Assembly (NCBI GenBank): GCA_017649705.1 | Contig: JAGCGH010000081.1 | Span: 206-64,205 of the forward strand | Source: a bacterium | Lineage (GTDB): Bacteria > Auribacterota > UBA3054 | Reading direction: 5' to 3' | DNA: 64,000 nucleotides | Made by a program: the position numbers and the translations under genes | Part shown: positions 1 to 32,640 of the stretch, one piece after another | Numbering within the stretch: the first letter of the stretch is position 1 | Layout: each line of letters opens with the position of its first letter | The notes under the pieces: model-generated | Seen by the model: only the letters and a program-made list of their open reading frames with translations | Told to the model about the DNA's origin: nothing | The model's database searches: none

Positions 1-1448
1 CGTGAGTGGATTCTTCTTCCACGACCGGGTTCTTGAGCAGATCGGAATTCAGGAAGGCTTTGATACGAGCATCGCCAACAGCTTCGCCCTTGGCGGTGAT
101 CGTCCAAGTCACAGCCTGCTTCGGCGTGAGGACGGGCACGGTTTCGAAGGTGACTTCTTTGCCGTTGACAGTGCCGTTGGTGGCGCCGCCGCAAGCAACC
201 GGGGTGACCTCAGCCGGGAAGACGACCTTCATGGTGATGGAGGTGTCGTCAGCGGAGCCCTGGTTGGTGACGGTGATGGTGTAGGTGACCTGTTCGGCAG
301 GTTCGGCGTCGAGCTGGATCGGGTCGGGGTTATCGACCATTTCGATCAGCAGAGCAGCCTGGCCGTACCACTTGGTGTTGGCGCAAGCCTGTTTTTCAAC
401 ACCATTCACGTTGATGGTGGCGCAGTTGGTGGTTTCGCCGACCACCGGGGAGGTGGCCACGACGCTGAATTCGACCTGCTGGCCGGGATTCAGGGTCGGG
501 ATGGTCCAGCTGGGGGAGCTCAGCTGACCATTGGAGCCGTTGGCGGCCAGGATGGTCAGGTTGGCGCCCGGAACGTCGGTCACGACCACGTTTTCGAAGG
601 TGGTGTCGCCAGTGTTCTTGACGGTGATGACGTAGTTGGCTTTCTTGTTGACCAGCTGTTCAGGCGTACCGGTCTTGTAGATCTCGAACTCGGGCTGGAG
701 CACTTTCGTGCAAGCCTGAGCGTCGGCCTGGTTGGTGTTGTCGCCCTTGGCGGTGACGTTGTTGCAGTAAGTGCCGCGCTGGGCAGCCACAGCGTCGAAG
801 GTCGCGGTCTTCACGCAGCCGGGGATCATGTCGCCGGCGTTCATGGTGAAGGTGCGAGCGGAAGGATCGGAGACCAGGGAGATGCCTTCGGGCAGCGTAT
901 CGGTCACGACGACGTTCTTAGCAAGGCCAGAACCGACGTTCTTGACGGTCACGGTGTAGGGGAAGGGCTGGCCGACCAGAGCGGTCTCGGGGGCCGTCTT
1001 GGTGACTTCGATCCTGGGGTTGGTGGCGGTAACCACGAAGCAGGTGCGGGGGAAGGCAGAGACGTAAGCGCACTGCTTGAAGGTGCCTTCCTGGTTGGCC
1101 TGCCAGGTGATCTCGAGGGTCTGGCACTGGAAAGCGTCAAGATCGCCGAGGTTCCAGGTCAGGGACGTGCCGTTGACCTGAGCGGCAGGAGTGGAGCTGA
1201 CGTAGGTCAGGCCTTCCGGAACGGTGCTCTTGATCACGACTTCCGCCACGTCCTGATTCGGGGTGACGATCATCTTGCTCGTGAACTGTTCGTTCAGGCT
1301 GACTTCAGTAGTGCCGGCATACTGGATACCGACCAAACTGGTGCAGGCAGCAGACCCATTCTGGGTGATGGGGGCGCAATCAGCGATAGCGGTGCCGGCG
1401 ACTAAGCAGGCGACCAGGCTGATGGCCATGAGGTTTTTGAGAAGTTTC
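1..1448 (-). CDS. DUF11 ('conserved repeat domain') secreted repeat protein; the 3' end runs a few codons past the window start
   Basis: Minus-strand frame reads MKLLKNLMAISLVACLVAGTAIA... from a GTG at 1446-1448, with AAGGAG 8 nt upstream. It has a signal-peptide-like N-terminus and repeated V/T-rich modules (…YTVTVKNVGSG…, …YVITVKNTGDT…, …YTITVTNQGSAD…) typical of DUF11. It ends …PVVEEESTH at position 1, like the paralog next door. The plus-strand ORF 2..1405 is its antisense shadow. Confidence 0.6.
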
Positions 1449-1526
1449 ACTTCTTTCTCCTTATTGTTAAACGTTTAACTGTGATGGCGGGCGCTACCCG
1501 CCTTTTGCTTTGGTGAACTAAAAATA

Positions 1527-3020: not shown

Positions 3021-3091
3021 ATGTTGGATTGTTAACTAGCCACATTCTACCAAACCTCACTCCGATAAGTCAAGTAAGCGCCTGGGGAAGG

Positions 3092-8508: not shown

Positions 8509-8538
8509 GCGCGCGGGAATTTTTCCCGCGCGTTTTTT
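8509..8538. terminator. Intrinsic terminator-like hairpin flanked by an A-run and a T-run
   Basis: gcgcgcgggaa-ttt-ttcccgcgcg followed by tttttt. It lies immediately downstream (in gene sense) of the duplicated gene-3' remnant, so it is likely the native terminator of the metallopeptidase gene. Confidence 0.45.
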
Positions 8539-8659
8539 ATTCCGCCTCGATGGTGAATTCGAAAAGTTCGCTGGCCCTGATGCCGTCCAGGACGTAGAGC
8601 GCCTTTTTGATCTTCTCCCCTTTCTTGGCGGGAACTTTGTATTCCTGCACTCTTCCGCT
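8537..8659. repeat. Left copy of a 123-bp perfect direct repeat (= last 41 codons plus stop of the gene 13007..15781)
   Basis: 8537-8659 is identical to 13007-13129 (ttattccgcctcgatggtgaattcgaaaagttcgctggccctgatgccgtccaggacgtagagcgcctttttgatcttctcccctttcttggcgggaactttgtattcctgcactcttccgct). Confidence 0.9.
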
Positions 8660-8712
8660 CTTAAATCCGGAAGCATACCAGTTGTTGGCGTCGTGCCAAT
8701 AGTACAAAAGTG
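8537..8712 (-). pseudogene. 3'-terminal gene remnant of the HExxH metallopeptidase (diverged paralogous segment + perfect repeat)
   Basis: Minus-strand translation gives …SFPLLYYWHDANNWYASGFKSGRVQEYKVPAKKGEKIKKALYVLDGIRASELFEFTIEAE*. The intact gene reads …GQPLLYYWHDAGNWYATDFRSGRVQEYKV…. Segment 8660-8712 is only ~70% identical to 13130-13185 and is AT-richer. Stop codons lie upstream of it. Confidence 0.65.
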
Positions 8713-9262
8713 GAAAACTGTATATTGAATTAACTACGCGTATATATCTAGTGTTTTCAGCATGCTAGGAAATGCAATTAAATACCAAAAAGCATAGTTA
8801 TATTGATTTTTCCGGCATCAATTTTAAATCTCTAATGCTAACACATTATATTCATTCCAATCCGTCATTTGACGAAACAATAATAACAGAATAATAACTT
8901 AAAAAGACGTGATAAATTCAAATTTTGTCCATCCATTTTTAAAAGTTGGTCTATAATGAAATGATAGAGTTTCGTTACAATAATAGAAATGCTTAATTCT
9001 TCCCTTAGTCCCCTATTATTAACGGCCTCAAGATTATTGCCTCGGATGAAAACAAACAAGCATTTTGCCATAACCCACCTGAATAATACTTCTCTTTAAT
9101 CTCTTTTGAAGCAACATTCTATCTTTTAGAAATAAAAAAAAGCGCAACGCAGTTATCATGTAAATGCGCCCATATTTTTTCTTTTGCCTATTTCAGCTCC
9201 ACTTAAATTAACTAAGTTCAATTCGTTTTTTAAAAAACAATTAAAAAAATGAAAAGGTTTGA

Positions 9263-10099
9263 TTATTTGATATTGATTTTATCGTAAAAAGGTAAATCGT
9301 TTCTAAAATATAATTTTGAATCTACTCCATAATCGGATTTTTCACAAGCAAAATATCTTAAAGACAATAAATGCTTTTCATACGAATTAGCAAACTCAAC
9401 AATTTTATTAAATAAAATTTGATTAATATTTTTTTTTAGTAAATTCTGATGCTTATCAATATTACCAAAGATTCCATAATAATGTTTAATTGTTGAAAGC
9501 AATCCTTTTTCGTTAATTGAAACGCCACTAAACACCTCATTTTCATCACGATTGTTATCGTAATAATATAAACGTATTTTTCGGCCAGCAAAACATTGCG
9601 TATCTATTTCAACAGCTATCCTTGCGGGAACACCTATATTCTTTGCCGTTTTAAAAATTGACATATTTTTAGGGAAGGCAAATTCAATTAAATATTCTAA
9701 ATATCTGAACGGATTAATACGATTAAAATCGACTTGCGGTTCTAAGCGAAGTGTGAAATCAGAATCTGAAGATTTAAAAGATGGATCAATACTAAAAGGG
9801 CATTCATTATATGAAAATACATGTTTCGCCAATGAATTAGAAAACAAATTTAAATAATAATTGTATATTTCTAACCGTCTTTTTGTTTGCTCATATGGGC
9901 CTAAAGAAATTGGTTCTATTAAATAAACGGCAGTCGATTTTATATAGCCATTTGCTAAAGAAAAACCAATAAATTCAACTTCGTAAATACCAGGAATTTT
10001 GCTAGCCTCAATACGTTTCAAGAGAGAACTAATATCCAACTGATTATCAACAAGATTCATTAAACAATCGTATATTCTTTCTTTATCTTTTATAATCAC
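9263..10099 (-). CDS. Hypothetical protein (278 aa), island-encoded, no recognisable motif
   Basis: Clean ORF with AT-rich codon usage and a K/N/Y/I-rich protein. It lies at the downstream end of the radical-SAM gene string in the same orientation. Confidence 0.45.
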   Translation of the reverse strand: MIIKDKERIYDCLMNLVDNQLDISSLLKRIEASKIPGIYEVEFIGFSLANGYIKSTAVYLIEPISLGPYEQTKRRLEIYNYYLNLFSNSLAKHVFSYNECPFSIDPSFKSSDSDFTLRLEPQVDFNRINPFRYLEYLIEFAFPKNMSIFKTAKNIGVPARIAVEIDTQCFAGRKIRLYYYDNNRDENEVFSGVSINEKGLLSTIKHYYGIFGNIDKHQNLLKKNINQILFNKIVEFANSYEKHLLSLRYFACEKSDYGVDSKLYFRNDLPFYDKINIK

Positions 10100-10179
10100 A
10101 GAAAAACTTCTCCATTAAATTATTCAGATATTGTGATTTTATAACTTTATATTTTGTTCTCAACATTAACTAAAAAGGA

Positions 10180-11364
10180 TTATCTAAAAAGTGCTTGATT
10201 CCCTATAGCCGAGGAAGCATCATCGCATAATGATAAATCTGATAATAGCTTTTCTGCTTCGTCTCTTGATAAATCTGACAAAAAACCTCGTGATAATCCT
10301 AGCAATGAAAGCTTTTGTTCTATATGAGACCAAATTATTTTATTAGTAATACATTCTTCTTCAAACCAACCAAAAAGCTTAGAATGAAGACAACCAGCGA
10401 TACAAAGTGTCCGCCATTTGCACGTGCCACACTTAGAAAAGCAAGGTTCTTTTTCAACTAAAAAGGATATTTTTTTCTTATTTTCAATTACTTGTTCTAC
10501 TGTGTCAGAATACACATTACCTATTGAATATGAATCAGAATCAAAACGACCACAAGGAAGCAATTCGCCATTATGTGCAATACTTAAAAAAGTATCAGAA
10601 CACCTACCATTGATGCTACATAATTTAGAGATGTTCATTAAATAAGCAAGAACTGCCCCTTGAACGGTTTCAACATTTGCAGGGTGCTGATCATTTAACC
10701 AAATATCAAAAAGTTCACAAACCCCATTTGCGTACTGCTCAGCAGTAACTGATTCAGCCATAAAGCAAGTTCCTTTATAGGAAGTCGGAAACATTCTATT
10801 AAGCCTAAACGGGATTCCCAACGCCTTAAACCATTCATAAAGTTCATTTATTCTTCCAACATTGCTGGCTGTCATCATAGTTATAGCCCCTAAATTTAAG
10901 CCAGCTTGCTTTAATGACATTGCTCGTTTTAAAATAATATCAGAAGCATCATCTCCATTTGGGAACAACCGATAATTAGATTGGAAATCCAAAGAAAAAC
11001 CTATTCGTGAACCAAACGACTCTTTAAGAAGCGGTATGAAATCATCTGAAGCCAAAGTTAGATTAGTCTGAATCTGATTTCTAACACCGATAGATAATTC
11101 ATTAAATTTTTTAGTATAATAATTTACACATTCCTTTATAAAGTCCAACCCCATCAAAAGAGGTTCACCACCATGCCAAATCACAGTAACTTCTTTAACA
11201 TTTAACTTACAGCAATAAGACATTATCCAGTCAAAACTTTTTTTTGCCTCGTCAATATTCATCATTCCATCAAAATCGTTTCGATCACGAGCGGCATAAC
11301 AATAACGGCATCTTAAATTGCAACGACTTGTGGGTTTAAAAATTATTGATAATTGATTAGCCAT
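10180..11364 (-). CDS. Radical SAM / SPASM-domain enzyme (anSME-like or peptide-modifying maturase family)
   Basis: CxxxCxxC motif KPTSRCNLRCRYCYA near the N-terminus. The C-terminal SPASM-like cysteine cluster is CSINGRCSD…LPCGRFD…CFSKCGTCKWRTLCIAGCLH. The track ORF starts at 11433; the start MANQLSII (about 11364) is more likely, giving a short overlap with the upstream gene. Confidence 0.8.
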   Translation of the reverse strand: MANQLSIIFKPTSRCNLRCRYCYAARDRNDFDGMMNIDEAKKSFDWIMSYCCKLNVKEVTVIWHGGEPLLMGLDFIKECVNYYTKKFNELSIGVRNQIQTNLTLASDDFIPLLKESFGSRIGFSLDFQSNYRLFPNGDDASDIILKRAMSLKQAGLNLGAITMMTASNVGRINELYEWFKALGIPFRLNRMFPTSYKGTCFMAESVTAEQYANGVCELFDIWLNDQHPANVETVQGAVLAYLMNISKLCSINGRCSDTFLSIAHNGELLPCGRFDSDSYSIGNVYSDTVEQVIENKKKISFLVEKEPCFSKCGTCKWRTLCIAGCLHSKLFGWFEEECITNKIIWSHIEQKLSLLGLSRGFLSDLSRDEAEKLLSDLSLCDDASSAIGNQALFR

Positions 11365-11377
11365 TGTTTTTGTCCAA

Positions 11378-12508
11378 TTATAAAATTTTAGATATTTTCT
11401 TTGAGTAACAATCCTCAAAACTTTCAATTTCATTTAATTGTAGATACTGTTGAACATAAGAAATTGTTTCAAGTGTATATTCACTTCTATAGCCGCAACA
11501 GGACTCGTGACAATTTTTATTAGGTTCACCCCAACACGAACCGGAACAAATATTATTTATATAACTATCACACTCCCTACAAACGTTCAATACTATCTGA
11601 TCATGTTTCCGCTTATAAGCTTCAATAATATCTTGTGGAGCACTAAAATAATAATTTCCTATTGACATATCAAACTTTCGACAATAACTTAATATTGCTC
11701 CATTCCCACAAATAGACAATTTCCAATAAGGTTCATTAACATCCGTACAACAAAACGGACGCTTGAGAAGAATGGAACGAGCTATTGCTGCAAAATTAGT
11801 AAACTTAAAACTTACTTCGCGCTCTCTAGTATATAAATCAAATAAAGCTATTACATAATCATTATATTCGTCCACAGTCAAATATTGTTCAAGCCTTTTT
11901 CCGTCAGGCGAATGTGCACGATTAACACGAAACATATCCACATGTTTACTATACCAATCATAAAGTTTTTGAGGTGGTTGCAAATCATTTTTTATTAGGG
12001 TACTTACAATTCCAACGCGAATATCCTTAGTATGTAAATAGTCTATTGCACGTTCAATATCAATAGCCGCGTTGCGACCATTTACATATTTCCTTGCTAA
12101 CCCATATGGTTCAAATGATCCGCCTATAAATCCATCAAAATATTCTTTGATTAAAAAACAAATCTTTTCGTTAACCAAAGTGAGATTGCTTTGCAACCTA
12201 TTAATAAATTTAATATCTGATCCTTCAAAACATCGTCTTTGCTCATTCAAAGCATTTTCAAGATTTGCTTCTCCATATAGCAACGGCTCACCGCCAAACC
12301 ATGTAAAATCAATAAATTTAATATCTAAAAAGTTACAGTATTTTATTAGCCAGGTATATGCTGCTTTAAAATCAAAAATACTCATATCGCCATAAGATGT
12401 GTCTGATACATAACAATAATCACACCTCATATTACAGCGATGTGTTGGCGATATGAGCACTGTCAATTTATCTGATGACACTATGCCTGAGAAGTCCAAG
12501 AACCGCAA
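11378..12508 (-). CDS. Radical SAM / SPASM-domain enzyme, second tandem copy
   Basis: CxxxCxxC motif ISPTHRCNMRCDYCYV. The C-terminal Cys-rich SPASM-like region is CCTDVNEPYWKLSICGNG…CRECDSYINNICSGSCWGEPNKNCHESCCG. The start is a TTG directly after an in-frame TGA, so the exact start is uncertain. Confidence 0.8.
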   Translation of the reverse strand: MRFLDFSGIVSSDKLTVLISPTHRCNMRCDYCYVSDTSYGDMSIFDFKAAYTWLIKYCNFLDIKFIDFTWFGGEPLLYGEANLENALNEQRRCFEGSDIKFINRLQSNLTLVNEKICFLIKEYFDGFIGGSFEPYGLARKYVNGRNAAIDIERAIDYLHTKDIRVGIVSTLIKNDLQPPQKLYDWYSKHVDMFRVNRAHSPDGKRLEQYLTVDEYNDYVIALFDLYTREREVSFKFTNFAAIARSILLKRPFCCTDVNEPYWKLSICGNGAILSYCRKFDMSIGNYYFSAPQDIIEAYKRKHDQIVLNVCRECDSYINNICSGSCWGEPNKNCHESCCGYRSEYTLETISYVQQYLQLNEIESFEDCYSKKISKIL

Positions 12509-12630
12509 TCAATATATTCTTTATATGAGATTGAAGAACTAGGTTTGGAGACTCTATGAAGAGCTATCCCAATGATTCTTTGTAATGCCGGTATATTTTT
12601 TGCGGCGATAATTACTTCTTTCTTTTCCAT
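12481..12630 (-). CDS. Candidate RiPP precursor peptide (49 aa), not in the ORF track
   Basis: Minus strand: AAAGAGGAG, then 7 nt, then ATG. Translation: MEKKEVIIAAKNIPALQRIIGIALHRVSKPSSSISYKEYIDCGSWTSQA*. It overlaps the first 28 nt of the radical-SAM gene in a different frame. Hand-translated from the sequence. Confidence 0.35.
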   Translation of the reverse strand: MEKKEVIIAAKNIPALQRIIGIALHRVSKPSSSISYKEYIDCGSWTSQA

Positions 12631-13006
12631 TTTAAATCTCCTCTTTGCCCTTTAAATTATTAAATCTCGTGTTTACCAAAGGGCTTGATAAACATCTTCC
12701 TTCCTTTCTATTAATGAAAAACTTTTTCATCAATATAAAAGAAAAAATAAGTTACATATATTATATCAAAAAAAGAAGTTAAAAGGAAATAACCCGTTGA
12801 TTTTTTGAATTGAAATAGGATTAAAATATTATTAGCAAGACATTTATATAGGTAGTCGGGTCTAAAAGCGTACATGTTTTTCGTATATACTTTAAAATTT
12901 AATGTGGATCTTAAAAAATATGATGATTTAAATAATAGTTGTGCTTAAAAGTTAATTGTATATCTGTGTCAACATCTCTTCCTCTTTCACTAATTAGTTT
13001 TCCTAC

Positions 13007-13129
13007 TTATTCCGCCTCGATGGTGAATTCGAAAAGTTCGCTGGCCCTGATGCCGTCCAGGACGTAGAGCGCCTTTTTGATCTTCTCCCCTTTCTTGGCG
13101 GGAACTTTGTATTCCTGCACTCTTCCGCT
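13007..13129. repeat. Right copy of the 123-bp perfect direct repeat (the actual 3' end of the intact gene)
   Basis: Identical to 8537-8659. Confidence 0.9.
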
Positions 13130-15781
13130 GCGGAAGTCCGTGGCGTACCAGTTCCCCGCGTCGTGCCAGTAGTATAGGAGAGGCTGACCTTCCGGATCGT
13201 AGCTCTTCCCGGCGTCCAATTTGACTATCGTTCCGGCCTTGGCCTTGAAATAATTAGTCTCCAGCAAAGCCACGGGCGCCCTGTTGAAATTGCGGCATTC
13301 CTCCGGGATCAGGGTCTCCTTCAAAGCCGGACGCTTTGTCGTCCTAAGCTGCGTCCTTATTTCGTAAACGCCCCGCATCCGATCGCCCGCGAAAAACTGC
13401 TCGTTGAACTCGGACAGGGGCAGCAGATGGAAATCCACGTCATCCGCGGTCTCGATCTTGATCAAAAGCAGCCCTTCCACGTGCCAGACAGAAGGCGTGC
13501 AGGGCGCGTCTTTGGTGGCGTCGTTCTCGTCTGTGGTCATGCCGAAGGGATTCCAAACGTAAGTCCTGCCGTCGAAGCGGTCGGTGTAGACAGAATCCCA
13601 ATTCTTGTCGGTGTCCGTCGGGATGAGATATTTGCCTTCCTTGTCCGTGTAGCCTTTGAATTTGGGAATGTCCGCGAAATATTTGTCCGCGAAAGCGTTT
13701 ATCTTCCCGTGGGAAACGTGGTAAACATAGACCGCCGCGTCCCTCAAAGGCTCGTCATTCACGTCGTAGATCTTCAGTATGTTTTCCGAGATCGGAATGA
13801 ACCTTCCCTGCGTCCCCCAGAAGCGCGGCCCGCGGTAGCCCGAGCAGTAGACGATCTTCCCGGCGTTGGAGCGGTTGATCCACATGTGGCAGCCGCTCAT
13901 CAAGGGCGTGTAGGCCGAGCCGCAGGGCACGTTCTCCGCGGAACTGTACATAATGTCGGATCCGAACTTCGGCATTCTGCTTCCCCCGGCGTAGTATTTC
14001 CCCTCTTTATCCTTCAATAAAACGTTGTGCCACCGGACGGGGTAAGAGTAGACGTCAGGCAGCGCCAGGCAGGTGTGGCCTAATTCGTGCACCACGGAGG
14101 CGTTCAGGGAGGAGAAGTGCGGCGCGCTGGCCTGATGCGAGGCGCGGTCGTTGGGATTGTCCGTTATGGGGAAGCCGCCGTCGCGGTATTCCTCCATTTT
14201 GTTGTAAACGTTGTCCTTGTCCTTTTCCCAATAATGGTAAACAAGATTGTCGATCCTGTACTTCTCCTTGATGCCATCCGGGCAGATATCGGGATACTTG
14301 GTGTCCAGAAGCAGCGCGTCAAGTTTCAGCTTGTGCCCCGCCACCCAGTCGAACATGGAGAAAGACCCCACGCAGTTCATTTTCCTTTCCCGGAAATAAT
14401 TCGTCGTGACCATGGGCGAAAAAGCGAACCACAGGGGCCTCGCGTCGCACCACTCGCTGACCTTGTTGTTCACCAAACACAAGTCGTCATCCAGCTTGAC
14501 CTCGGCGTTCATCAGCAAACTTTCTTTGGGGAAAGTCCAGATGAAACTGTATTTCCTGATCTGCTGGGGCAGGAAAGGTTCCAGCTCCACCACCCTTTTG
14601 CAAACGGGGGCCTTTTCGTCCCCCACCCAGAAGCGCAGCTTCAGTCCTGCGGGAGAAGTAATGGGGCCGTAGTTGGCCACGTGCACCACGGAGGTCACCT
14701 GGTCCCCCGGCGCGATCTTGGTTTTCAGATCCTTGTAGCTGTAGCGTGGCAAGAGTTCTATGAACTGCACCGTCATGTCAGGCTTTTCCGGCGAGATCAC
14801 TTCCGTCGCGAACTCCGCCTCCTTCCCGCGGTAGGAGGCCTTCACCTTGACCTTCCCTTCCGCAAGCCCCTTTATGGCCGCCGGGATCTTTTCATCCGGA
14901 GCGGCGCACCCGTTGTCCGTCGACCACTGGATGAAAGGCTTGGCGTCGAAATACGACCAGTTGCCGTAGGCGTTCATCTCGTCCGTCACCATTTCGAATT
15001 TGCCGTTCCTCTTCGCCCTTAAACCAAATTTCTTCGAATATCCCAAAAGTATCCTTTTGTCCGCGTGGATCCCCCAGGGCTCAGGCGTGATCTCGATCTC
15101 CTCAGCAGGGAAGGTCCTGAAGTATTCGGTGTAAACGGCTTTCAAAAGCGCGCCGTTATCCAAAGTCGAACGCCTGCCCAGTTTTTCGTTCCTGAAAACA
15201 AGATCCTTCATTTCGCCGTTATCATGATGGAATTCAATGCTCCCGGGTATCTCCCCCGGATCGAAGAAAGCGTCCTTGCAGGGCACTTCCCCCCCTATGC
15301 ACTCCTTGTCGAAAAACAGCGGCAGTCCGCAGGGAACGTCCTCGTCGTTCACGAACCAGGAAAAAGCGATGTGGTGCCACTCCCCCGCTTTGAAAGTAAC
15401 CTTGCTTCTGGTGGCAGCTTTTTTCTCCTTGGATACGGAAGCGATCTTCAGAAGACCTTCCTTGGTCTTCGAGAGAACCATCCCGTTCTCCGGTTTGCCC
15501 ACGACCAAGATCAAATGCTCGTTCCCGTCATCCGAAGCAAAATTTGGCTTGAACCAAAACGAGACAAAGCCGAACCTGGGCGAGATCTCCAATCCATCGG
15601 CATAGTCTATGTCGGAAGCGCGCTTAAGATCTTTGTTCCCGTCCAGGGTAGTGTCGCCCGTCCGCACTTCCTGCGCTCCCGGAAGAGGCGCGGAAGAGAA
15701 CGGCCAAAAAGTATAGACCGCAGCATAAAGATTCACTGCCGCCAAAACAGAAACGCAAAGCAAAATTCTCTTCATAAACAT
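13007..15781 (-). CDS. Secreted zinc metallopeptidase-like protein (HExxH)
   Basis: 924 aa with a signal peptide (MFMKRILLCVSVLAAVNLYAAVY). HELGH is present in …SLNASVVHELGHTCLALPDVYSYP…. The family is not assignable from sequence alone. The stop codon at 13007-13009 is the island junction. Confidence 0.55.
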   Translation of the reverse strand: MFMKRILLCVSVLAAVNLYAAVYTFWPFSSAPLPGAQEVRTGDTTLDGNKDLKRASDIDYADGLEISPRFGFVSFWFKPNFASDDGNEHLILVVGKPENGMVLSKTKEGLLKIASVSKEKKAATRSKVTFKAGEWHHIAFSWFVNDEDVPCGLPLFFDKECIGGEVPCKDAFFDPGEIPGSIEFHHDNGEMKDLVFRNEKLGRRSTLDNGALLKAVYTEYFRTFPAEEIEITPEPWGIHADKRILLGYSKKFGLRAKRNGKFEMVTDEMNAYGNWSYFDAKPFIQWSTDNGCAAPDEKIPAAIKGLAEGKVKVKASYRGKEAEFATEVISPEKPDMTVQFIELLPRYSYKDLKTKIAPGDQVTSVVHVANYGPITSPAGLKLRFWVGDEKAPVCKRVVELEPFLPQQIRKYSFIWTFPKESLLMNAEVKLDDDLCLVNNKVSEWCDARPLWFAFSPMVTTNYFRERKMNCVGSFSMFDWVAGHKLKLDALLLDTKYPDICPDGIKEKYRIDNLVYHYWEKDKDNVYNKMEEYRDGGFPITDNPNDRASHQASAPHFSSLNASVVHELGHTCLALPDVYSYPVRWHNVLLKDKEGKYYAGGSRMPKFGSDIMYSSAENVPCGSAYTPLMSGCHMWINRSNAGKIVYCSGYRGPRFWGTQGRFIPISENILKIYDVNDEPLRDAAVYVYHVSHGKINAFADKYFADIPKFKGYTDKEGKYLIPTDTDKNWDSVYTDRFDGRTYVWNPFGMTTDENDATKDAPCTPSVWHVEGLLLIKIETADDVDFHLLPLSEFNEQFFAGDRMRGVYEIRTQLRTTKRPALKETLIPEECRNFNRAPVALLETNYFKAKAGTIVKLDAGKSYDPEGQPLLYYWHDAGNWYATDFRSGRVQEYKVPAKKGEKIKKALYVLDGIRASELFEFTIEAE

Positions 15782-21513: not shown

Positions 21514-23580
21514 TCAGATCCTGCGGCTGAACTGCAGGAGATAGAGGTCGTAGTAGGCGCCTTTCTTGGCCATCAGTTCCGCGTGGCTGCCCCTTTCTAT
21601 GATCTTGCCGTCGTCCAGAACGAAGATCTCGTCCACCTTGTGGATGGTCGAGAGGCGGTGGGCCACGATCATGCTTGTACGCCCGATCATCAGTTTGTCG
21701 ATGGCGTCCTGGATCAAATGCTCGGTGGCCGGGTCCACGTTGCTGGTGGCTTCGTCCAGGATCAGTATCCTGGGATCATGCGCCAGAGCCCTGGCGAAGC
21801 ACAGGAGCTGTTTTTCGCCGGCGGAGAGCGTGGCTCCGCGTTCCGCCATCACTTCGTCGTAGCCTTTGGGCAGTTTCTCGATGAACTGGTTGGCGCAGAC
21901 GGTCTCGGCGGCCTTGATGGCTTTCTCCCTGGTGATGGTCGGGTCTCCCAGGGCGATGTTCTCATAGATGGAGCGGCTGAAGACGAAGGTTCCCTGCAAG
22001 ACGATGGAGATGTGCTTCCTCAATTCCTCGTTGGACCAATCTTTGACGTTCACGCCGTCTAAGAGCACCTCCCCCTTGTTGGCGTCGTAGAAGCGGCAGA
22101 CCAGGTTTATAAGGGAGGATTTCCCGGCGCCGGTGGGGCCCACGACGGCGATGCTCTTGCCGGGCTCGATCTTGAAGGAGACGTCTTTCAGGACCTGCTC
22201 GTCCTCGATGTAGGAGAAGTCCACGTTCCGGAATTCCACTTCGCCTTTCGGATCAGGGACTATCACAGGATTTTCCGGCTGGGCTACTTCGTTCTTGGTG
22301 TCGAGAAGCGTGAAACTCCTTTCCAAAGATGACAAACTGGTTTGAAGCTGAGTTATTTGACCGCTTATTTGAGTGATAGGATTATAAAGATTGTCTAAAT
22401 AAGTAATAAAAGCCATTAATGAGCCAAGAGTAAGATTGCCTTTCAGCACACAAACACCGCCATATAAAACAACAAGTGCGGTTCCAAAATGCTTAAGAAG
22501 ATCAAGGGCAGGACCAAAAATGCCCATATAAATAACGTTTTTAAACCCTACTTTATAATAAACGTTATTTATAATGACAAACATATCCCTCATACGCTTC
22601 TGCTGATTAAAAGATTGAATAATCTTAATACCAGAAAAAACTTCTATCAAACTTCCATTTATTCCAGATAGCATCCTACGTAATTCTCTTTGAACTTTTC
22701 TCATCATTATTCTAAAGAAAAAAGTAATTAAAACGCAAAAAGGGAGAAGTGTAAGAGCAATCAATGAAAGTCTCCAGTTAATGAAAAAAACAATAATTAA
22801 AGAGCCGACAAACATTGTAACGCTAACTAACATTTGGACAGCTACCGTAGACAGCATTGTATTAATAGCCTCAATATCGTTCGTAACTCTTGTGACAAGG
22901 CTGCCGATAGGAGTTCTGTTGTAAAGGGAAACAGATAGACTCTGAAGATGATTGAATAGCTCCATTCTAAGAGTGTACATCGTGCGCTGGCTGGCTACTT
23001 CAAGCGTAAGTCTATGGAAATAATCGGCAAAAGCACGAATTATAAGAACTATTAAAAAAAAGAGAAACATCCTCTTCAAGCCTTTAATATCCGTGCCCCT
23101 TATCTTAGTCAGCAGCATGGGGTCGATGTCCGCGAACTGGCTGTCCGGCACGAACCAGTTGCCGCCGTAAACGAAGCCGTGGGTCCCGTCGTAATCAACT
23201 TCCGGGAAGACGTAGTGGTTCTCGCCCTTGTCCTTTATGGAGTCGCTGATGTCCTTGTTCTTTTCCAAAAAACTCATGGGTACGGCGAGGGTGTCGCCGC
23301 CGGCCTTGATGGAAACTTCGGAAAGTTCGGGATATTTATTGAGGACTTCCTGATCGGGCTTTGCGAAGGTGTATAAGGGAACGAGATAGTTGTCTATGCT
23401 CTTCCTGTAGATGTTCGGCGTGATGAGCTGGGTGGCCGAAGAAAGCGCCAGAAAGAGCAGCGCCAGGAAGATGTAGAGCTTCTGGGGAGAGGCGTAGCCC
23501 AAAAAGCGCCTGATATAGCTTATATCAAAGCCGCTTTTATACTGGGCTTCCGAATCAAAATCATGATGATCGTGACTCAT
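21514..23580 (-). CDS. ABC exporter, fused TMD-NBD half transporter with an unusual ~100-aa extracytoplasmic insert after TM1
   Basis: Walker A GPTGAGKSS, signature LSAGEKQ and Walker B ILILDEAT. Six TM helices. The central ~800 nt (about 22300-23110) is conspicuously AT-rich, with A/T-ending codons. Confidence 0.8.
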   Translation of the reverse strand: MSHDHHDFDSEAQYKSGFDISYIRRFLGYASPQKLYIFLALLFLALSSATQLITPNIYRKSIDNYLVPLYTFAKPDQEVLNKYPELSEVSIKAGGDTLAVPMSFLEKNKDISDSIKDKGENHYVFPEVDYDGTHGFVYGGNWFVPDSQFADIDPMLLTKIRGTDIKGLKRMFLFFLIVLIIRAFADYFHRLTLEVASQRTMYTLRMELFNHLQSLSVSLYNRTPIGSLVTRVTNDIEAINTMLSTVAVQMLVSVTMFVGSLIIVFFINWRLSLIALTLLPFCVLITFFFRIMMRKVQRELRRMLSGINGSLIEVFSGIKIIQSFNQQKRMRDMFVIINNVYYKVGFKNVIYMGIFGPALDLLKHFGTALVVLYGGVCVLKGNLTLGSLMAFITYLDNLYNPITQISGQITQLQTSLSSLERSFTLLDTKNEVAQPENPVIVPDPKGEVEFRNVDFSYIEDEQVLKDVSFKIEPGKSIAVVGPTGAGKSSLINLVCRFYDANKGEVLLDGVNVKDWSNEELRKHISIVLQGTFVFSRSIYENIALGDPTITREKAIKAAETVCANQFIEKLPKGYDEVMAERGATLSAGEKQLLCFARALAHDPRILILDEATSNVDPATEHLIQDAIDKLMIGRTSMIVAHRLSTIHKVDEIFVLDDGKIIERGSHAELMAKKGAYYDLYLLQFSRRI

Positions 23581-25355
23581 TTCCCCTCCTCGATGACGGC
23601 GCTCTGAAGCATATAGAGCTCCTTATAATAGGGCGAGCGTTCCTTCAGCTCCTCGTGGGTGCCGATGTCCTCTATTTTCCCGTTGTTCAGAACGATGGTG
23701 CGGTCGGCGTTCTTCACGGCGGAGAGGCGGTGCGCTATTATGATGTTGGTGGCGCCTCCTCTCAAAGTTCCAAGCTCCTTCAGGATCTCGCTCTCGGTCT
23801 CCGCGTCCACCGCGGAAAGGGCGTCGTCCAGGACCAGTATCCTGGGTCTCAAGGACAGGGCCCTGGCGATGGCGATCCTCTGTTTCTGTCCGCCGGACAA
23901 GGTGACGCCTCTCTCCCCCACCCAGGTGTCGTAGCCGTCCTTGAAGCGCATGATGTCGTCGTGGATGAAGGCTTTCTTGGCCCAGTAGACGACTTCCTCG
24001 TCGTCCATTTCAGGCCTGGCGAAACGGATGTTATCCTTTATGGTCATGCTGAAGAGGAAGGGCTCCTGGGGCACGTAGCCGTAGACGCCCCTCAGCTCGT
24101 CCAGCCTGTATTCCGAAACGTCCCTGCCGTTCAGCAGGACCGTTCCCTTGGGCGGCGAATAGAGCCGCATGCAAAGGTCCACCAAGGTCGTTTTGCCGCA
24201 GCCGGTGCGTCCGACTATTCCGAGCGTCTCCCCTTCCGCCACGTGGCAGGTGATGTTTTCCAGAGCGTTCTTTACGGCGCCGGGATACTTGTAAGTGAGG
24301 TCCTTTATTTCAAGGAGAGTCTTCCCCTTCACCTTTTCCTTTCCGTCCTTGATGGCGCTCTCCTCGTCCAGGATGGTCTGGATCCTTTCCGAACTGGCGC
24401 AGCCTCTCTCCAGGTGGTTGATGACTTCGCTGATGGCGATCATGGGCCAGGTCATGGTCCCCAGGTACATGTAGAATTTCGTGAAGGTGCCCAGGGGCAT
24501 CTCGCCCATGATGATCCTTTTTCCGCCGAACCACAGCAGAAGCGCCATGCAGAGGTTGGAGACCACCATGATGAGAGGGCCCATCATGGCCCACTTCCTG
24601 ACCAGGGCGATGCTGTTGTCCACGTAGGCTCTCCCCTCTTTGCCGAAGGAATCAAGGGAGGCCTCCTCGTCGCCATAGGCTTTGACCACCATGATGCCGG
24701 CGAAGATCTCCTGGGCTCTTTCGTTCATGGCGGAAAAGGCCTCCTGGACTTTGCCGAACAAAACTCTTATCTGCCGGCCGATTATCCTGACCACCACCAT
24801 GATGATGGGCGCGGGGATGAGCACCAGGAGCGCCAGTTTCCAGTTTTCCGTCAGCATCAGAACGATGATGGCGCTGCCCATGACCAGGGAGTCCGCCCCC
24901 GCCAGCATGCCGAAGGCCACGGAGTGCTCCACCGCCTGCACGTCGTTGGTCATGTGCGCGGTCAGATCCCCCACCCTGTGCTTGTCGAAATACTCGGGCG
25001 GCATGGTCTGCAGATGGTCGAAGATCTTCTGCCTCAAGTCGCGGTTTATTTTCAGGCCCACGCCGGAAAAACAATAGCGCCACAAAAAGCGGAAAAAGAT
25101 GCCGCAGGTCATGATCCCGATCATAGTGAGGCACAGTCTCGTAAGGAGCTCCCTGGTGGCCGTGCCGTCGGACAAAGCGTCGAAAGCCTGCCCGATGAAG
25201 CGCGGCATCAGAAGCACCGCCATATCGATGCAGGCCAGGCCCAATACGCCTATTAGGAAGCGGTAGCGGTACTGCCAGACATAGCCCAGCAGGATCTTCA
25301 TGCCCGCTTTGGTTATCTTATCACCCTGGGATCCGCCGTGAAAATGTGGAGGCAT
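23577..25355 (-). CDS. ABC exporter, fused TMD-NBD half transporter (probable heterodimer partner)
   Basis: Walker A GRTGCGKTT, signature LSGGQKQR and Walker B ILVLDDALSAVD. There is a 4-nt overlap with the downstream ABC gene. Confidence 0.8.
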   Translation of the reverse strand: MPPHFHGGSQGDKITKAGMKILLGYVWQYRYRFLIGVLGLACIDMAVLLMPRFIGQAFDALSDGTATRELLTRLCLTMIGIMTCGIFFRFLWRYCFSGVGLKINRDLRQKIFDHLQTMPPEYFDKHRVGDLTAHMTNDVQAVEHSVAFGMLAGADSLVMGSAIIVLMLTENWKLALLVLIPAPIIMVVVRIIGRQIRVLFGKVQEAFSAMNERAQEIFAGIMVVKAYGDEEASLDSFGKEGRAYVDNSIALVRKWAMMGPLIMVVSNLCMALLLWFGGKRIIMGEMPLGTFTKFYMYLGTMTWPMIAISEVINHLERGCASSERIQTILDEESAIKDGKEKVKGKTLLEIKDLTYKYPGAVKNALENITCHVAEGETLGIVGRTGCGKTTLVDLCMRLYSPPKGTVLLNGRDVSEYRLDELRGVYGYVPQEPFLFSMTIKDNIRFARPEMDDEEVVYWAKKAFIHDDIMRFKDGYDTWVGERGVTLSGGQKQRIAIARALSLRPRILVLDDALSAVDAETESEILKELGTLRGGATNIIIAHRLSAVKNADRTIVLNNGKIEDIGTHEELKERSPYYKELYMLQSAVIEEGK

Positions 25356-29322: not shown

Positions 29323-32300
29323 TTATTGAGTTATGACCACACGAAAGCCGAAGCCGAGGTTGACGACGCCAGGGTCGGGGGCGAAGCTGATGCGGGTGGC
29401 AGAGCGGCAGAGGTCGGGGTAGAAGCCCCAGCCCCCGCCCCGGATCACACGGGAGCTGCCTGAGCTCGCGCCCCTGGGATCGGTTTCCGACCCGGCGTAT
29501 GAGCCGTACCAATCCAAGCACCATTCCCACACGTTGCCGTGCATGTCATAAAGACCCCAAGCGTTGGGAGAATAGGAACCAACTGTAGTATGTTCGCTAT
29601 ATCCGCCTTTGCCGTCGTTGCGGTTACAATAGTAACGAGCCAACTTTGCCAGGCAGCCGTCGCTGACCGTATTGGTAATATTGTTACCGTCGTTCAGCGC
29701 GGTAGTCGTGCCTGCCCTGCAGGCATACTCCCATTGTGCTTCCGTGGGCAGATCGAAGACGTTTCCCGCCTTTTTCCTCAATTGTCCCATAAAACTCCAT
29801 TCGTCAACTCCGTGATCCTCCGGCCAAGCGAAACCTTTTGCAAATCCTCTGAGCTTATTGTAGGAAACTTCTTCCACTGGCCTCATGTCGCCAGTGTTAT
29901 ACGAAGGATTTTCACCAAAAATATTCTGGAATTGCTTCTGCGTCGTTTCAAAGACGCCTATGTAGTAAGCTTTGGTAAGTGTTACTTCGCGCTGCGTCTC
30001 TTCGTTACTTCTGCCCAATTCGTCCTCGGGAGATCCCATGTTGAACGTTCCCGGCTCGATCCTTCTGAGCCAGAGTTCATCCGTGCGGCATTTGTTGTCT
30101 GTCGTATCCGGCGCATCTGAAGAGACCCTCATCTTGTTGCTAGTTGTATCAAGGACAAGATAGGCCGCTTGTTCCGTCACATCTTCGTATTCAACTCTCA
30201 ATTCCACTTCATCCATTATGTTGGTGTAAGCCGCGTCCGAAATCCAGGTCAATTTATGCAGACCCGCTCCAACCACTATTCCGCTGGCTCCGTCATATTC
30301 GATTTCACCCATTTCAGCTAAAGGCTTTTCCGTTCCGTTCGGCAGTTTTCCAAATAACTTCACTTTAAAAACCGGCAGGGTGTTTTCTGTCCCGGATTTG
30401 ATCTCAAATTCAAAATCCTTTTTATTTTTCTGTCCAGAAAACACATTTTGAACTAGGACAACACGAAAGCCGCCGTCTATCAAATGGTCGGAGGGGGAAT
30501 TTCTGCCGGCACGGTTGGCAGAGCGGCAGTAGCAGGCGGATTTGAGCCAGCTCCCGCCCCGGGCCACACGACAGCTGCCTGAGCTCGCGCCTACGGGTTC
30601 TGTAACAGGATCGGTGCCAAGATCTTCCTGATACCAATCCAAGCACCACTCGAACACGTTGCCGTGCATATCGTAGAGGCCACAGGCGTTGGGAAGATAA
30701 GAGCCAACTACGGCGTGATAATTATCGGATCCGCCGTTGTAGCTGTAGCGTCCAACTTCATCCATGTTTTGGCACTGCTCTTCGTTGGTCAGATCCTTCC
30801 CACTGTTCAGCGCGGTGGTCGTGCCTGCCCTGCAGGCCATTTCCCATTGCGCTTCCGTGGGAAGGTCGAAATTCATTTGCGTTTTGGAGCGAAGTTTTCC
30901 GAAAAAGGAGTCTTCGTCCACATCATAATTATAAGGCCAGCTTGCGCCGAAACGTTTCCCGCGGATCATATTGTAGGAAACGTTCTCTACCGGCCTAACA
31001 TCGCCTTTATAATATGACGGATCGCTTCCTGTAATTAATTCGTATTGCTTCTGCGTCGTTTCAAAAACGCCGATGTAATAAGCGTTTGTCAAAGTTACCT
31101 GGTGTTGAGTTTCATCAATGTATCTCCCTAATTCGTCAGTGGGGCTGCCCATGGTGAATATCCCCGGCTCTATCTTCCGCAGGACCAGTTTCGTGGTCTT
31201 GTATTCTTCCGTCCAGCCGCCCTCGGGAACATCGTCAAGCAAACTGACGGGATACAACTCAGCTTCTGGACCGCCGCTCAAATCGACGACAATGTATTTC
31301 TCTTTCTCAGCTTTTTTGAAAGTTGCAAGAAGTTCCGTGTCTTTGGTTAGCGTCAGTTTCAACGGATTTTCGTATGAAATGTTTCCTTCCCACTCAAAGC
31401 TCTTAAAAAACTCCTCGCCAGGGATCGCTGTAACCACGACTTCTTCAGAGTCTACGAACGAATAACTGACAGAACCTTTTCCGGAAATCGTTACATTGAG
31501 AGCATAATTCCCAAAGACCGCCTCGACAAGCGTGTCTTCTTCCAAAACGAGCGTCATTTCGCTGTCCTGGCATCTTTCCCCATTCACAGTGAAGCAGCGG
31601 AACTTGTCTTTATTTTCTGTAACTTTAACTTCCACTTCGTCAGGCCCAATGAACTCAGCGCTTGCGGATCCTTCGCCGACAACCTTGAGTGAAAAGTCAT
31701 AAGATCCGAAGGCCGCCTGGACTTCTGTGTCTTCCAGAAGTTCCAACGTCATGAAATCATTCGTTACCTTTGTGCCTTTATAGAAAAAATAGCGGAACTT
31801 GTCAGGATTCTTCGTAACCCTAAACTCGACCTTGTCAGGTTCGCAATAACCGGAATACACATCGCCGTCGCCGATAATTTCCAAAGAGTAATCGTATTTG
31901 TTCGTGAATATGTACTCGCTTTCAAGAATAGCGGGATAGGCGGCTTCAGGGGAAAGAGTATACTTGGCGGTGGCCTTTCCTTTGGAATTTACGGAAACCT
32001 TCGCCTGTATATCGTTATAGTTGCAGGAGAATTTGTAATTCTTGCCTTTCGGTTGAAGACTGAAGACTAAGGAAGCAAGATATCCCAGACTCTGATCGGC
32101 GCACAGTTTGTCAAAGACAGTAAGCCTTTTAGTTTCGAGTTCCGCAAGTTTAGATGTATCAATGGTGCCTTTAGATTTTAAAACAGCCTTGTCAGGCCGT
32201 ATCCTTTCTTTTCCGGTCACGAATGTGAAATAAGGCGTGACGTCCTTTTCCGTCCATTGAAATTTTCCGTTTTTTGTTTTTACGGAAACGTTCCGCGTCT

Positions 32301-32640
32301 CGGTCTTTTCTCCGTATCCCGCTTTCGTTGTCGGAAGCAAAGTCGGAAACGCCAGATAACTGTCCAGGGAGTTGTAGATCGCCATGGGGATTCCGCCTGA
32401 GATGCTTTGCATGGCAGCGTCATTCATCTGCCCGCTTAAACTAAGCGTGGTCGTTCCTTTGATAAAGCCGCAGGCGTTCACCACTCTTTGCGTAGCGATA
32501 GAACCGGCGAATATCTCTCCGGCCATAGAGAAGATCGTGGCTACGATAAGCAGGATGGATCTTTTCATATATTCTCCCAAAAACTGATTTGGTTTGCTTT
32601 GGCAAAAATTATAACTAGCCTTGTTATAAAATTTTACCAA
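29323..32640 (-). CDS. Large secreted protein with two FGE-sulfatase (SUMF1/DUF323) domains
   Basis: 1105 aa with a signal peptide. Two modules each contain …AYYIGVFETTQKQ…DLPTEAQWE(Y/M)ACRAGTTTALN…YDMHGNV(F/W)EWCLDWY…RV(A/I)RGG(S/G)W…CRSA.R…GFRVV…. Confidence 0.7.
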   Translation of the reverse strand: MVKFYNKASYNFCQSKPNQFLGEYMKRSILLIVATIFSMAGEIFAGSIATQRVVNACGFIKGTTTLSLSGQMNDAAMQSISGGIPMAIYNSLDSYLAFPTLLPTTKAGYGEKTETRNVSVKTKNGKFQWTEKDVTPYFTFVTGKERIRPDKAVLKSKGTIDTSKLAELETKRLTVFDKLCADQSLGYLASLVFSLQPKGKNYKFSCNYNDIQAKVSVNSKGKATAKYTLSPEAAYPAILESEYIFTNKYDYSLEIIGDGDVYSGYCEPDKVEFRVTKNPDKFRYFFYKGTKVTNDFMTLELLEDTEVQAAFGSYDFSLKVVGEGSASAEFIGPDEVEVKVTENKDKFRCFTVNGERCQDSEMTLVLEEDTLVEAVFGNYALNVTISGKGSVSYSFVDSEEVVVTAIPGEEFFKSFEWEGNISYENPLKLTLTKDTELLATFKKAEKEKYIVVDLSGGPEAELYPVSLLDDVPEGGWTEEYKTTKLVLRKIEPGIFTMGSPTDELGRYIDETQHQVTLTNAYYIGVFETTQKQYELITGSDPSYYKGDVRPVENVSYNMIRGKRFGASWPYNYDVDEDSFFGKLRSKTQMNFDLPTEAQWEMACRAGTTTALNSGKDLTNEEQCQNMDEVGRYSYNGGSDNYHAVVGSYLPNACGLYDMHGNVFEWCLDWYQEDLGTDPVTEPVGASSGSCRVARGGSWLKSACYCRSANRAGRNSPSDHLIDGGFRVVLVQNVFSGQKNKKDFEFEIKSGTENTLPVFKVKLFGKLPNGTEKPLAEMGEIEYDGASGIVVGAGLHKLTWISDAAYTNIMDEVELRVEYEDVTEQAAYLVLDTTSNKMRVSSDAPDTTDNKCRTDELWLRRIEPGTFNMGSPEDELGRSNEETQREVTLTKAYYIGVFETTQKQFQNIFGENPSYNTGDMRPVEEVSYNKLRGFAKGFAWPEDHGVDEWSFMGQLRKKAGNVFDLPTEAQWEYACRAGTTTALNDGNNITNTVSDGCLAKLARYYCNRNDGKGGYSEHTTVGSYSPNAWGLYDMHGNVWEWCLDWYGSYAGSETDPRGASSGSSRVIRGGGWGFYPDLCRSATRISFAPDPGVVNLGFGFRVVITQ

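Follow-up and report, generated by a model that had tools for sequence, protein, structure and literature searches.

In a 64,000-nucleotide stretch of the bacterial contig JAGCGH010000081.1 (the whole stretch is called the window below), whose proteins are recorded at NCBI under an unclassified 'bacterium' metagenome-assembled genome (MAG), we analysed a group of four genes lying in a low-GC genomic island of ~4.3 kb (positions 8714..13006). All four are on the minus strand and together occupy less than 3.5 kb; in reading order they encode a 49-amino-acid (aa) precursor peptide (12481..12630), two radical S-adenosylmethionine (SAM) enzymes, rSAM1 (11378..12481) and rSAM2 (10180..11364), and a 278-aa protein (9263..10099). 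The gene junctions are tight, consisting of a 1-nt overlap, a 13-nt spacer and an 80-nt spacer, and the coordinates confirm the first-pass annotation, made from the DNA letters, which had described two tandem, closely packed enzymes in one orientation with the 278-aa gene behind them. That annotation had taken the locus for a peptide-maturation system akin to those for peptides that are made on ribosomes and modified post-translationally (RiPPs). The conserved precursor upstream of the enzymes and the scores of both enzymes below the cutoff for anaerobic sulfatase-maturating enzymes (anSMEs) support this reading, and we consider it highly probable that the locus is a compact, horizontally acquired RiPP gene cluster of a family that we did not find described.

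The first gene encodes the peptide MEKKEVIIAAKNIPALQRIIGIALHRVSKPSSSISYKEYIDCGSWTSQA, in which the leader contains NIPALQRIIGIAL and the last 13 residues, KEYIDCGSWTSQA, make up the core. A Shine-Dalgarno-like sequence read from the DNA, AGAGGAG (12638..12644, minus strand), ends 7 nt before the precursor ATG and is the strong ribosome-binding site that had been ascribed to this open reading frame (ORF). Two details of the earlier description hold in part. The ORF had been called unannotated; an NCBI entry exists, MBO7435262.1, 'hypothetical protein J6U76_04635 [bacterium]', which names it only as hypothetical. It had also been said to overlap the 5' end of the first enzyme gene, and the overlap is real but no longer than 1 nt, the first base of the rSAM1 GTG start at 12481 being the last base of the TAG stop of the peptide. 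The identical 49-aa peptide is recorded on 7 contigs.

The role of this ORF as a precursor had been proposed together with a test, set beforehand, that could refute it, namely whether the ORF is conserved next to homologs of the enzymes. The order small ORF, rSAM1 ortholog, rSAM2 ortholog recurs in six independent lineages (the window and the related contigs L001-4, L005-8, L009, L010 and L016). The leader segment N-P-A-L-x-R-I-V-G-x-A-L is conserved, and the core is near-invariant across the six lineages as KEY[IT]DC[GH][SGA]WTxQA; in an alignment of seven sequences the residues A, L, L, K, E, Y, D, C, T and Q do not vary. A profile search of 5.8e9 proteins yielded 22 peptides, between 49 and 86 aa long, that with few exceptions end in KEYIDCGSWTxQ[AG] or KEYxDCSFGTIQG, and in all ~25 precursor variants were collected, every one from metagenome contigs or MAGs. 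At the invariant residues the lineages use different synonymous codons (AAA/AAG, GAA/GAG, TAC/TAT, GAT/GAC, TGC/TGT, ACT/ACC/ACG/ACA), indicating selection on the peptide sequence. Many members of the family have Gly-Gly directly ahead of Lys-Glu-Tyr, where the peptide of the window has Ser-Tyr, and this placement suggests that the core begins at the Lys. The locus thus presents what is generally expected of a RiPP, a precursor with conserved leader and core that is co-located and co-conserved with modifying enzymes.

We also considered that the small ORF might be a frameshifted N-terminus of rSAM1. This was excluded, because the distance between the two varies across lineages from the 1-nt overlap up to ~300 nt, and because another gene intervenes in one contig. 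The intervening gene, at 5391-5702 of L003, belongs to the transposase family Y1_Tnp and is missing from the sister contigs L001 and L002.

Both enzymes carry the CxxxCxxC triad reported at first reading, rSAM1 as RCNMRCDYCYV (C15-N-M-R-C19-D-Y-C22) and rSAM2 as RCNLRCRYCYA (C15-N-L-R-C19-R-Y-C22), and both match the radical SAM family PF04055 above its cutoff of 29.5 bits, with 41 bits (E 3e-10) and 46.5 bits, respectively. For rSAM1 the mechanically derived ORF starts at TTG 12508, and the N-termini of homologs together with an independent gene call on the contig favour GTG 12481, which gives a protein of 367 aa. The start of rSAM2 is ATG 11364, yielding 394 aa in exact agreement with the database protein P0001, so that a 417-aa ORF from 11433 is too long; its NCBI record is MBO7435260.1, 'radical SAM protein'. 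Eight conserved Cys residues lie in the C-terminal part of each enzyme: C245, C267, C301, C304, C312, C316, C324 and C329 in rSAM1, where they are invariant and include the spacing Cx2Cx7Cx3C, slightly longer than the usual Cx2Cx5Cx3C, and C249, C255, C271, C312, C315, C321, C325 and C338 in rSAM2, where C15, C19 and C22 of the radical SAM motif are also invariant in the family. A SPASM domain is marked by 7-8 C-terminal Cys in the pattern Cx9-15Gx4C ... Cx2Cx5Cx3C ... C, which bind two auxiliary clusters. The C-terminal Cys clusters noted earlier are present in both enzymes, whereas the Pfam SPASM threshold (PF13186) is reached by rSAM2 only (31 bits; cutoff 21.5); rSAM1 has no match to that model and a SPASM-like C-terminus, aligning end to end with SPASM-containing models (DynA 2-323/356, anSME 8-341/363). 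The three plus eight Cys residues of rSAM2 align one-to-one with the ligands of the three clusters in anSMEcpe of C. perfringens (PDB 4K37), which at 98 bits is its best PDB match by sequence, CteB and ChlB being matched as well; the best PDB match of rSAM1 is the triceptide synthase ChlB (9gm3). The two enzymes are paralogs with 29% identity, and homologs of rSAM2 at 49-77% identity occur only in metagenome contigs and MAGs.

The families that come closest to the two enzymes are those of peptide maturases: the best curated matches comprise DynA, DarW/DarE, the cyclophane synthases GrrM/OscB, YhhB, AmcB and FxsB, and PapB. Scores of rSAM1 against the NCBIfam models were 95 bits for DynA, 74 for anSME, 70 for GrrM/OscB, 61 for TIGR04083, 57 each for YhhB and AmcB, and 53 for PapB, at cutoffs of 300-450. 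For rSAM2 they were 166 bits for anSME, 162 for DynA, 110 for TIGR04083, 106 for DarW, 102 for YhhB, and 95 each for PapB and AmcB, at cutoffs of 300-650. A defence-system reading was rejected: PADLOC returned no match for the 278-aa protein and otherwise only weak, generic radical SAM similarity to prokaryotic viperins, confined to the N-terminal core.

The first-pass annotation had regarded the 278-aa protein as an orphan. In sequence it is one, since profile searches of Pfam, NCBIfam, PADLOC and PDB returned no match and Pfam scans of remote relatives were negative too; 6 homologs were found among 5.8e9 proteins and 18 representatives among 1.84e9 clusters. The predicted fold places it elsewhere. 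A confident AlphaFold2 model built on a six-sequence alignment (predicted local distance difference test, pLDDT, 83; predicted template modelling score, pTM, 0.83) has ten strands in five helix-helix-strand-strand repeats, the arrangement of an ABBA, or prenyltransferase (PT), barrel. In a Foldseek search of the PDB with this model the top 50 matches were all aromatic prenyltransferases, at probability 1.00 and template modelling (TM) scores <=0.61, among them NphB/Orf2, DMATS1, EpzP, IptA, DciF, PirF, CloQ, AmbP1/3, FamD1 and CymD. Residues invariant in the family alternate along the strands (R160/E164/D166, K174/R176/Y178/Y180, K205/Y207 and D260/K262/Y264/R266), and such alternating basic, acidic and Tyr residues would fit an inward-facing polar lining of the barrel. 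A homolog with 45% identity lies downstream of precursor, rSAM1 and rSAM2 in L010, and homologs with 42% identity occur in L026-L029; there the gene of the homolog comes after those of a 46-aa peptide with SCGSWC, an rSAM2-like enzyme (38%), an rSAM1-like enzyme (30%) and a YcaO protein. Considering the predicted prenyltransferase fold and this recurring cluster context, the protein is probably a member of the pathway with a predicted ABBA-type prenyltransferase fold.

Two of these relatives have additional genes. L010, the closest relative of the cluster in the window, has a 222-aa ORF between rSAM2 and the prenyltransferase-like gene (1058-1726, minus strand) that the window lacks; its N-terminal LIIRHADK, judged by eye only, recalls histidine phosphatases. 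L026 has a second, Cys-rich peptide of 43 aa (959-1090), ending in VGCCCQGCSGDLMHGSGC, which is followed at 1151-3843 by two further radical SAM genes, for products of 437 aa and 448 aa; taken as a whole, the locus resembles a cluster with two precursors, four radical SAM enzymes, a YcaO protein and a prenyltransferase.

A comparison of loci with different precursors points to a division of labour between the two enzymes. In three lineages (L015, L019-23 and L024-25) the precursor lacks Trp: it is 83 aa long and ends in KEY[IVA]DCSFGTIQG, keeping K-E-Y-x-D-C...T.Q with a Gly in the position of the Trp. Its gene is part of a conserved seven-gene operon (for example L019 4036-10732; also L015 and L020-L025) that encodes, in this order, proteins of 424 aa, 210 aa (Snf7-like) and 292 aa, a caspase-domain protease of 356 aa, the precursor, an rSAM2-type enzyme and an AAA ATPase of 397 aa. 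The caspase-like gene is of the Peptidase_C14 family, the best PADLOC match of the ATPase is IetA (E 3e-24), and the Snf7-like match is weak and below the cutoff (PF03357, E 7.6e-5). The sole radical SAM gene in these loci is an ortholog of rSAM2 with 57-59% identity; no rSAM1-type gene was found on the L015, L019-23 and L024-25 loci as assembled. At 4495-5892 of L015 the caspase domain and the precursor form a single 465-aa frame ending in KEYKEYVDCSFGTIQG, while in L019-L025 the caspase (356 aa) and the precursor (83 aa) are separate genes 44 nt apart; the single frame could be a true fusion or an assembly error.

Conversely, Trp is present in all five precursor families tied to a tandem pair of rSAM1-like and rSAM2-like enzymes: type a, that is the window and its relatives, has the core DCGSW, L016 the core DCHAW, and the C-terminal sequences VCGWGETDVWE...HYSDYSD, SCGSWCSD and SGWHTDAW belong to L018, L026 and L030, respectively. 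Because Trp occurs only together with rSAM1, and an rSAM2-type enzyme is present at every locus with a KEYxDC precursor, we infer that rSAM2 acts on the KEYxDC segment and rSAM1 on the Trp. Two aromatic-X-X motifs occur in the core of the window, Y39-I-D41 and W45-T-S47. Precursors of types a and b all keep Y-x-D, and an aromatic-x-Asp triplet (YID, YVD, YTD, YSD or HTD) is found in five of six precursor families, YSD and HTD being the related motifs of the distant pairs L018 and L030. Triceptide synthases join an aromatic ring to the C-beta of the residue two positions on, the native motif of ChlB being YDR (PMC11499958). By analogy, the most economical guess for the product of the window is a peptide with two three-residue cyclophanes, Tyr39-Ile-Asp41 and Trp45-Thr-Ser47. 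The invariant Cys42 may also have a role and could be engaged in a thioether or be oxidized in the way anSME oxidizes its substrate Cys.

Searches for relatives in genome and metagenome collections suggest that the family is rare. The back-translated core K-E-Y-I-D-C-G-x-W-T had 0 matches in a DNA-pattern scan of 185,579 GTDB species representatives, and a GTDB protein-pattern scan with the rSAM2 family alignment gave no relative above 34% identity among the matches listed, which included one distant tandem pair, L030, from the Paludibacteraceae. A scan of JGI metagenomes for the core yielded four contigs, all of one project; the records of some related contigs are labelled ruminant gut. The core motif strings had no match in the literature searched, and the family is absent from the descriptions in a paper on mining Bacteroidales RiPPs. 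The genes around type-a clusters differ in every lineage. ThiF/E1-like adenylyltransferase genes adjoin the radical SAM pair in L009 (3534-6490, with an additional weak Prok-JAB match) and in L030 (2508-3884, where the call is a nucleotide-binding motif read by eye only) and may represent a further peptide-tailoring or conjugation module. Directly upstream of precursor, rSAM1 and rSAM2 in L005 (195-5211) lie a 613-aa YcaO gene, a methyltransferase gene and two radical SAM genes, which could be part of a larger hybrid cluster or form a neighbouring one.

The island that carries the cluster is sharply set off from its surroundings. In a composition scan of the window its GC content was ~0.29-0.33 versus ~0.57 in the host, and the GC content of third codon positions (GC3) is 0.20-0.28 in the four island genes versus 0.73-0.75 in two flanking host genes; the homologous clusters in L001, L005, L009, L010 and L016 likewise have lower GC than their flanks. 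The island begins directly past the stop codon of an intact 924-aa host gene (13007..15781), the 3' end of which (13007..13183, minus strand; direct repeat copy A) recurs at the distal end of the island as copy B (8537..8713, minus strand), a duplicated fragment that reads as a 56-aa pseudo-ORF. The copies (repeat search, family D1) are 89% identical across 177 nt, represent the final ~55 codons of the host gene and are identical in their last ~125 nt, stop codon included; the native terminator hairpin of the 924-aa gene (8509-8533) is retained behind the distal copy B. In two close relatives, L110 (GCA_017649805.1) and L111, the site is empty: the flanking genes are adjacent, in the order PD-(D/E)XK nuclease, 925-aa gene, GH31 glycosidase, a spacer of ~230 nt separates the latter two, and the terminator behind the 925-aa gene is the same as the 8509-8533 hairpin of the window. 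Given the 177-nt repeats and the empty site in L110 and L111, the island is a recent insertion in which the 3' end of the target gene was duplicated. A shifted composition, direct repeats on both sides and relatives with an empty site are all features of integrative islands, and they bear out the horizontal acquisition that had been proposed at first reading.

This layout would result if a circular DNA with a homologous gene end had integrated through a single (Campbell-type) crossover. Neither the ORF list nor family searches revealed an integrase, recombinase, transposase or other mobility gene in 8714..13006, and besides the four cluster genes the island contains two short ORFs without family matches; promoter, terminator and Rfam scans of the island gave nothing above chance. 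The earlier statement that the island has no transporter, protease or sulfatase gene is correct for 8714..13006. In the pseudo-ORF (8537-8707, minus strand) the first ~50 nt carry substitutions, shifted towards AT, relative to the intact gene and may be a remnant of the integration-site copy of the donor.

On the basis of these observations we propose the following pathway. The 49-aa product would serve as the precursor, with the N-P-A-L-x-R-I-V-G-x-A-L leader acting as the recognition handle of the enzymes and KEYIDCGSWTSQA as the modified core. In each of rSAM1 and rSAM2 a 5'-deoxyadenosyl radical would take a hydrogen from the core, after which an intramolecular cross-link would form. rSAM2 would act on K-E-Y-x-D-C, where a Tyr-x-Asp three-residue cyclophane is the likeliest product and Cys-centred chemistry the alternative; rSAM1 would act on the Trp, most likely producing a W-T-x aromatic cross-link. 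The 278-aa protein may then add an isoprenyl group, for which Trp, Tyr and Cys are the candidate acceptors, and removal of the leader and export would be left to host functions encoded elsewhere.

Several points weigh against parts of this proposal. The prenyltransferase call draws solely on a structure predicted from the 6-sequence alignment, with no sequence link to the prenyltransferases in Pfam or PDB, and the protein is possibly an inactive homolog resembling PatF, which is inactive. Four of the six type-a lineages do not have the 278-aa gene, so its contribution would be that of an accessory, optional tailoring step. The link between Trp and rSAM1 comes from only three Trp-less lineages, and the contigs L024 and L025 stop within the rSAM gene, leaving nothing visible beyond it. 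All curated maturase families in NCBIfam are missed widely, so that homology gives no basis for assigning a chemistry to the enzymes. In both of them the CxxxCxxC motif begins at residue 15, and an N-terminal extension that could accommodate a RiPP recognition element (RRE) is lacking. No leader peptidase, exporter or immunity gene was found in 8714..13006; a peptidase or exporter gene is frequent in RiPP clusters without being required. In addition, the nearest ATP-binding cassette (ABC) exporter, encoded at 21514..25355, has no C39 peptidase domain. This exporter locus consists of a 688-aa ORF (21514..23580, minus strand) and a second ABC exporter gene (23577..25355). Inside the intact 688-aa ORF, in the part encoding the transmembrane domain, there is a low-GC patch of ~600-700 nt (22300-22900; GC 0.32-0.35 versus ~0.57), which may be a mosaic or recombined segment.

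Among the other explanations of the locus, the one raised at first reading is that both enzymes are anSMEs, which would turn a Cys or Ser of host sulfatases into formylglycine, next to an incidental small ORF. It can point to TIGR03942, the anSME model, as the top NCBIfam match of rSAM2 (166 bits), to anSMEcpe (4K37, 98 bits) as the best PDB sequence match of this enzyme, with all eight auxiliary-cluster Cys residues of anSME matched, and to the host, which does encode proteins with formylglycine-generating enzyme (FGE)-sulfatase domains, as had been stated: a 1105-aa protein (29323..32640, minus strand) contains two FGE-sulfatase stretches (PF03781). The profile searches proposed earlier, with PF04055, SPASM and TIGR03942, place both enzymes in the radical SAM family but below the anSME cutoff. 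With the anSME models (TIGR03942 / NF010308 / NF010321; curated equivalog cutoff 349 bits), TIGR03942 gives 166 bits for rSAM2 and 74 for rSAM1, under half of the cutoff, and 138-192 bits for five other members of the rSAM2 family, whereas the positive controls P0088 and P0112 (407-409 aa), which the same search for homologs had listed in its tail and which are only 29% identical to rSAM2, score 484-498 bits. At the third auxiliary Cys, P-C276-D277 of anSMEcpe is aligned with P-C271-G272 of rSAM2, in a stretch with the family consensus LLPCGRFDSD, so that the residue replaced by Gly is the one that we take to be the catalytic base proposed in the 2013 structure paper. A sulfatase gene was called neither in the island nor in any of the inspected homolog loci, the precursor ORF is strongly conserved, and resemblance to anSME is generic across this branch of peptide maturases (PMC10114670) and hence uninformative here. 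On model scores, positive controls, gene context and the residue at the Asp277 position we rejected the anSME identity, which appears very improbable. The region of the window at 30-34 kb, which overlaps the gene of the FGE-domain protein, has a somewhat lower GC content (0.46-0.51).

A different question is what the product would be for. The same genes and modification could yield a peptide-derived cofactor or an intra- or intercellular signal in place of a secreted antimicrobial, comparable with pyrroloquinoline quinone (PQQ), mycofactocin, cysteine tryptophylquinone or the prenylated-Trp pheromone ComX. The 13-residue core is almost invariant, although between lineages the leaders and enzymes share no more than 42-77% identity, and such near-invariance is typical of cofactor and signal precursors, not of diversifying bacteriocins. 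The core joins Glu, Tyr, Cys and Trp, the residues from which known peptide-derived quinone cofactors are made; the island is without exporter, immunity gene and protease, and the fixed operon of the Trp-less relatives also encodes a caspase-like protease, a weakly Snf7-like protein and an AAA ATPase, a context that would suit a cellular rather than an antibiotic role. Yet no gene for a partner redox enzyme or receptor is conserved beside the type-a clusters, whose neighbours differ per lineage, and many precursors have Gly-Gly directly before the core (IGG|KEY...), resembling a cleavage site of secretion-linked leaders. We thus regard a cofactor or signal as possible though rather doubtful; the near-invariant core and the Trp-less operon do leave room for it over an antibiotic. 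That the island is an inert remnant, its genes silent or without function in this host, is improbable. The extreme codon mismatch (GC3 0.20-0.28 versus 0.73-0.75), promoter and terminator signals no better than chance and the lack of mobility and accessory genes (peptidase, exporter) in the island would fit such a fate, but the four reading frames are intact, every catalytic Cys and conserved core residue is in place, the genes are closely joined, a strong ribosome-binding site precedes the first of them, and the identical peptide recurs on 7 contigs. The reading we prefer therefore remains that of a RiPP cluster with a dedicated precursor and two maturases. An extension of it, which we put forward as speculation and think unlikely, combines several of these elements: the cross-linked KEYxDC peptide would be a new cofactor or signal, ancestral in the Trp-less operon, and the island a mobile derivative that has added a second radical SAM enzyme, active on Trp, and a new, highly divergent clade of barrel-fold prenyltransferase, which would result in a doubly cross-linked and prenylated peptide of an undescribed chemotype.

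A radical SAM/SPASM RiPP cluster is in itself of a known kind. New are the KEYIDCGSWTxQA precursor family, two subfamilies of maturases outside all curated models and a very small, sequence-orphan clade with a predicted prenyltransferase fold, all three known only from uncultured bacteria. Peptides modified by radical SAM enzymes have provided unusual antibiotics such as darobactin, cofactors and signals. The co-occurrence of Trp with rSAM1 and of KEYxDC with rSAM2 predicts which enzyme would modify which residue. The 4.3-kb island, lacking an integrase and having an empty counterpart in relatives, documents the recent transfer of a pathway between very different genomes, and for annotation the case indicates that similarity to sulfatase maturases in this enzyme branch should not be taken as evidence of sulfatase activation.

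Compared with known systems, the cluster shares with anSME (TIGR03942; PDB 4K36-4K39) the radical SAM plus SPASM architecture, the three cluster-binding Cys sets being kept in rSAM2, for which 4K37 is the closest solved structure by sequence. It differs in context, as the genes accompany a dedicated small peptide and not sulfatases, in scores that stay below half of the cutoff, and in the Gly that rSAM2 has at the position of Asp277. The likeness to triceptide pathways (XyeB, GrrM/OscB, YhhB, AmcB, FxsB and ChlB) is closer: there, too, a short precursor lies directly upstream of an anSME-like radical SAM/SPASM enzyme without an RRE-sized extension, the core of the window has the aromatic-X-X motifs Y-I-D and W-T-S, triceptide families are among the best NCBIfam matches of both enzymes, and ChlB is a PDB sequence match for both. 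The enzymes nevertheless miss the triceptide cutoffs (57-102 bits versus 310-450), and in contrast to triceptide systems the cluster has two paralogous enzymes, predicted to act as synthases on one non-repetitive core, an invariant Cys between the motifs of this core and an additional gene with a predicted prenyltransferase fold.

In the darobactin and dynobactin pathways a single radical SAM/SPASM enzyme makes aromatic cross-links, and the core of the window resembles theirs in its short length, its C-terminal position and its wealth of Trp and other aromatic residues. Among the corresponding models (NF041298, NF038005 and NF041300), DynA is the top match of rSAM1 and the second match of rSAM2 (95 and 162 bits; cutoff 450), and with the DarE and DarW models the scores are 41-106 bits, the cutoff being 650. 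Unlike these pathways, the cluster has two enzymes and an unrelated core, and it contains no dedicated ABC exporter genes, whereas the darobactin pathway includes the exporter genes darBCD; the hosts also differ, being uncultured anaerobes for the present family and Gammaproteobacteria for darobactin and dynobactin.

The PapB, CteB and QhpD models match the enzymes of the window significantly, at scores below threshold. PapB and QhpD cross-link Cys with Asp/Glu-type residues, and the core of the window has, like the substrates of ranthipeptide and QhpD enzymes, an invariant Cys along with Asp and Glu; it differs from ranthipeptides in having a single Cys in place of repeated C-x3-D motifs. QhpD, CteB and Tte1186 are reported to have 7 SPASM Cys residues (PMC10352776), unlike rSAM2, which keeps 8, as does anSME. 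Cyanobactin pathways carry subtilisin-like proteases of the PatA/PatG type and a macrocyclase; in the island, by contrast, such a protease was not found. The 278-aa protein, finally, is similar in size (~280-300 aa) to bacterial ABBA prenyltransferases and to the cyanobactin peptide prenyltransferases PagF, PirF, PatF and DciF and, like the latter, is encoded in a RiPP cluster. It differs from known ABBA prenyltransferases in sequence, with 7-12% identity in structural alignments, and its family is paired with radical SAM or YcaO enzymes.

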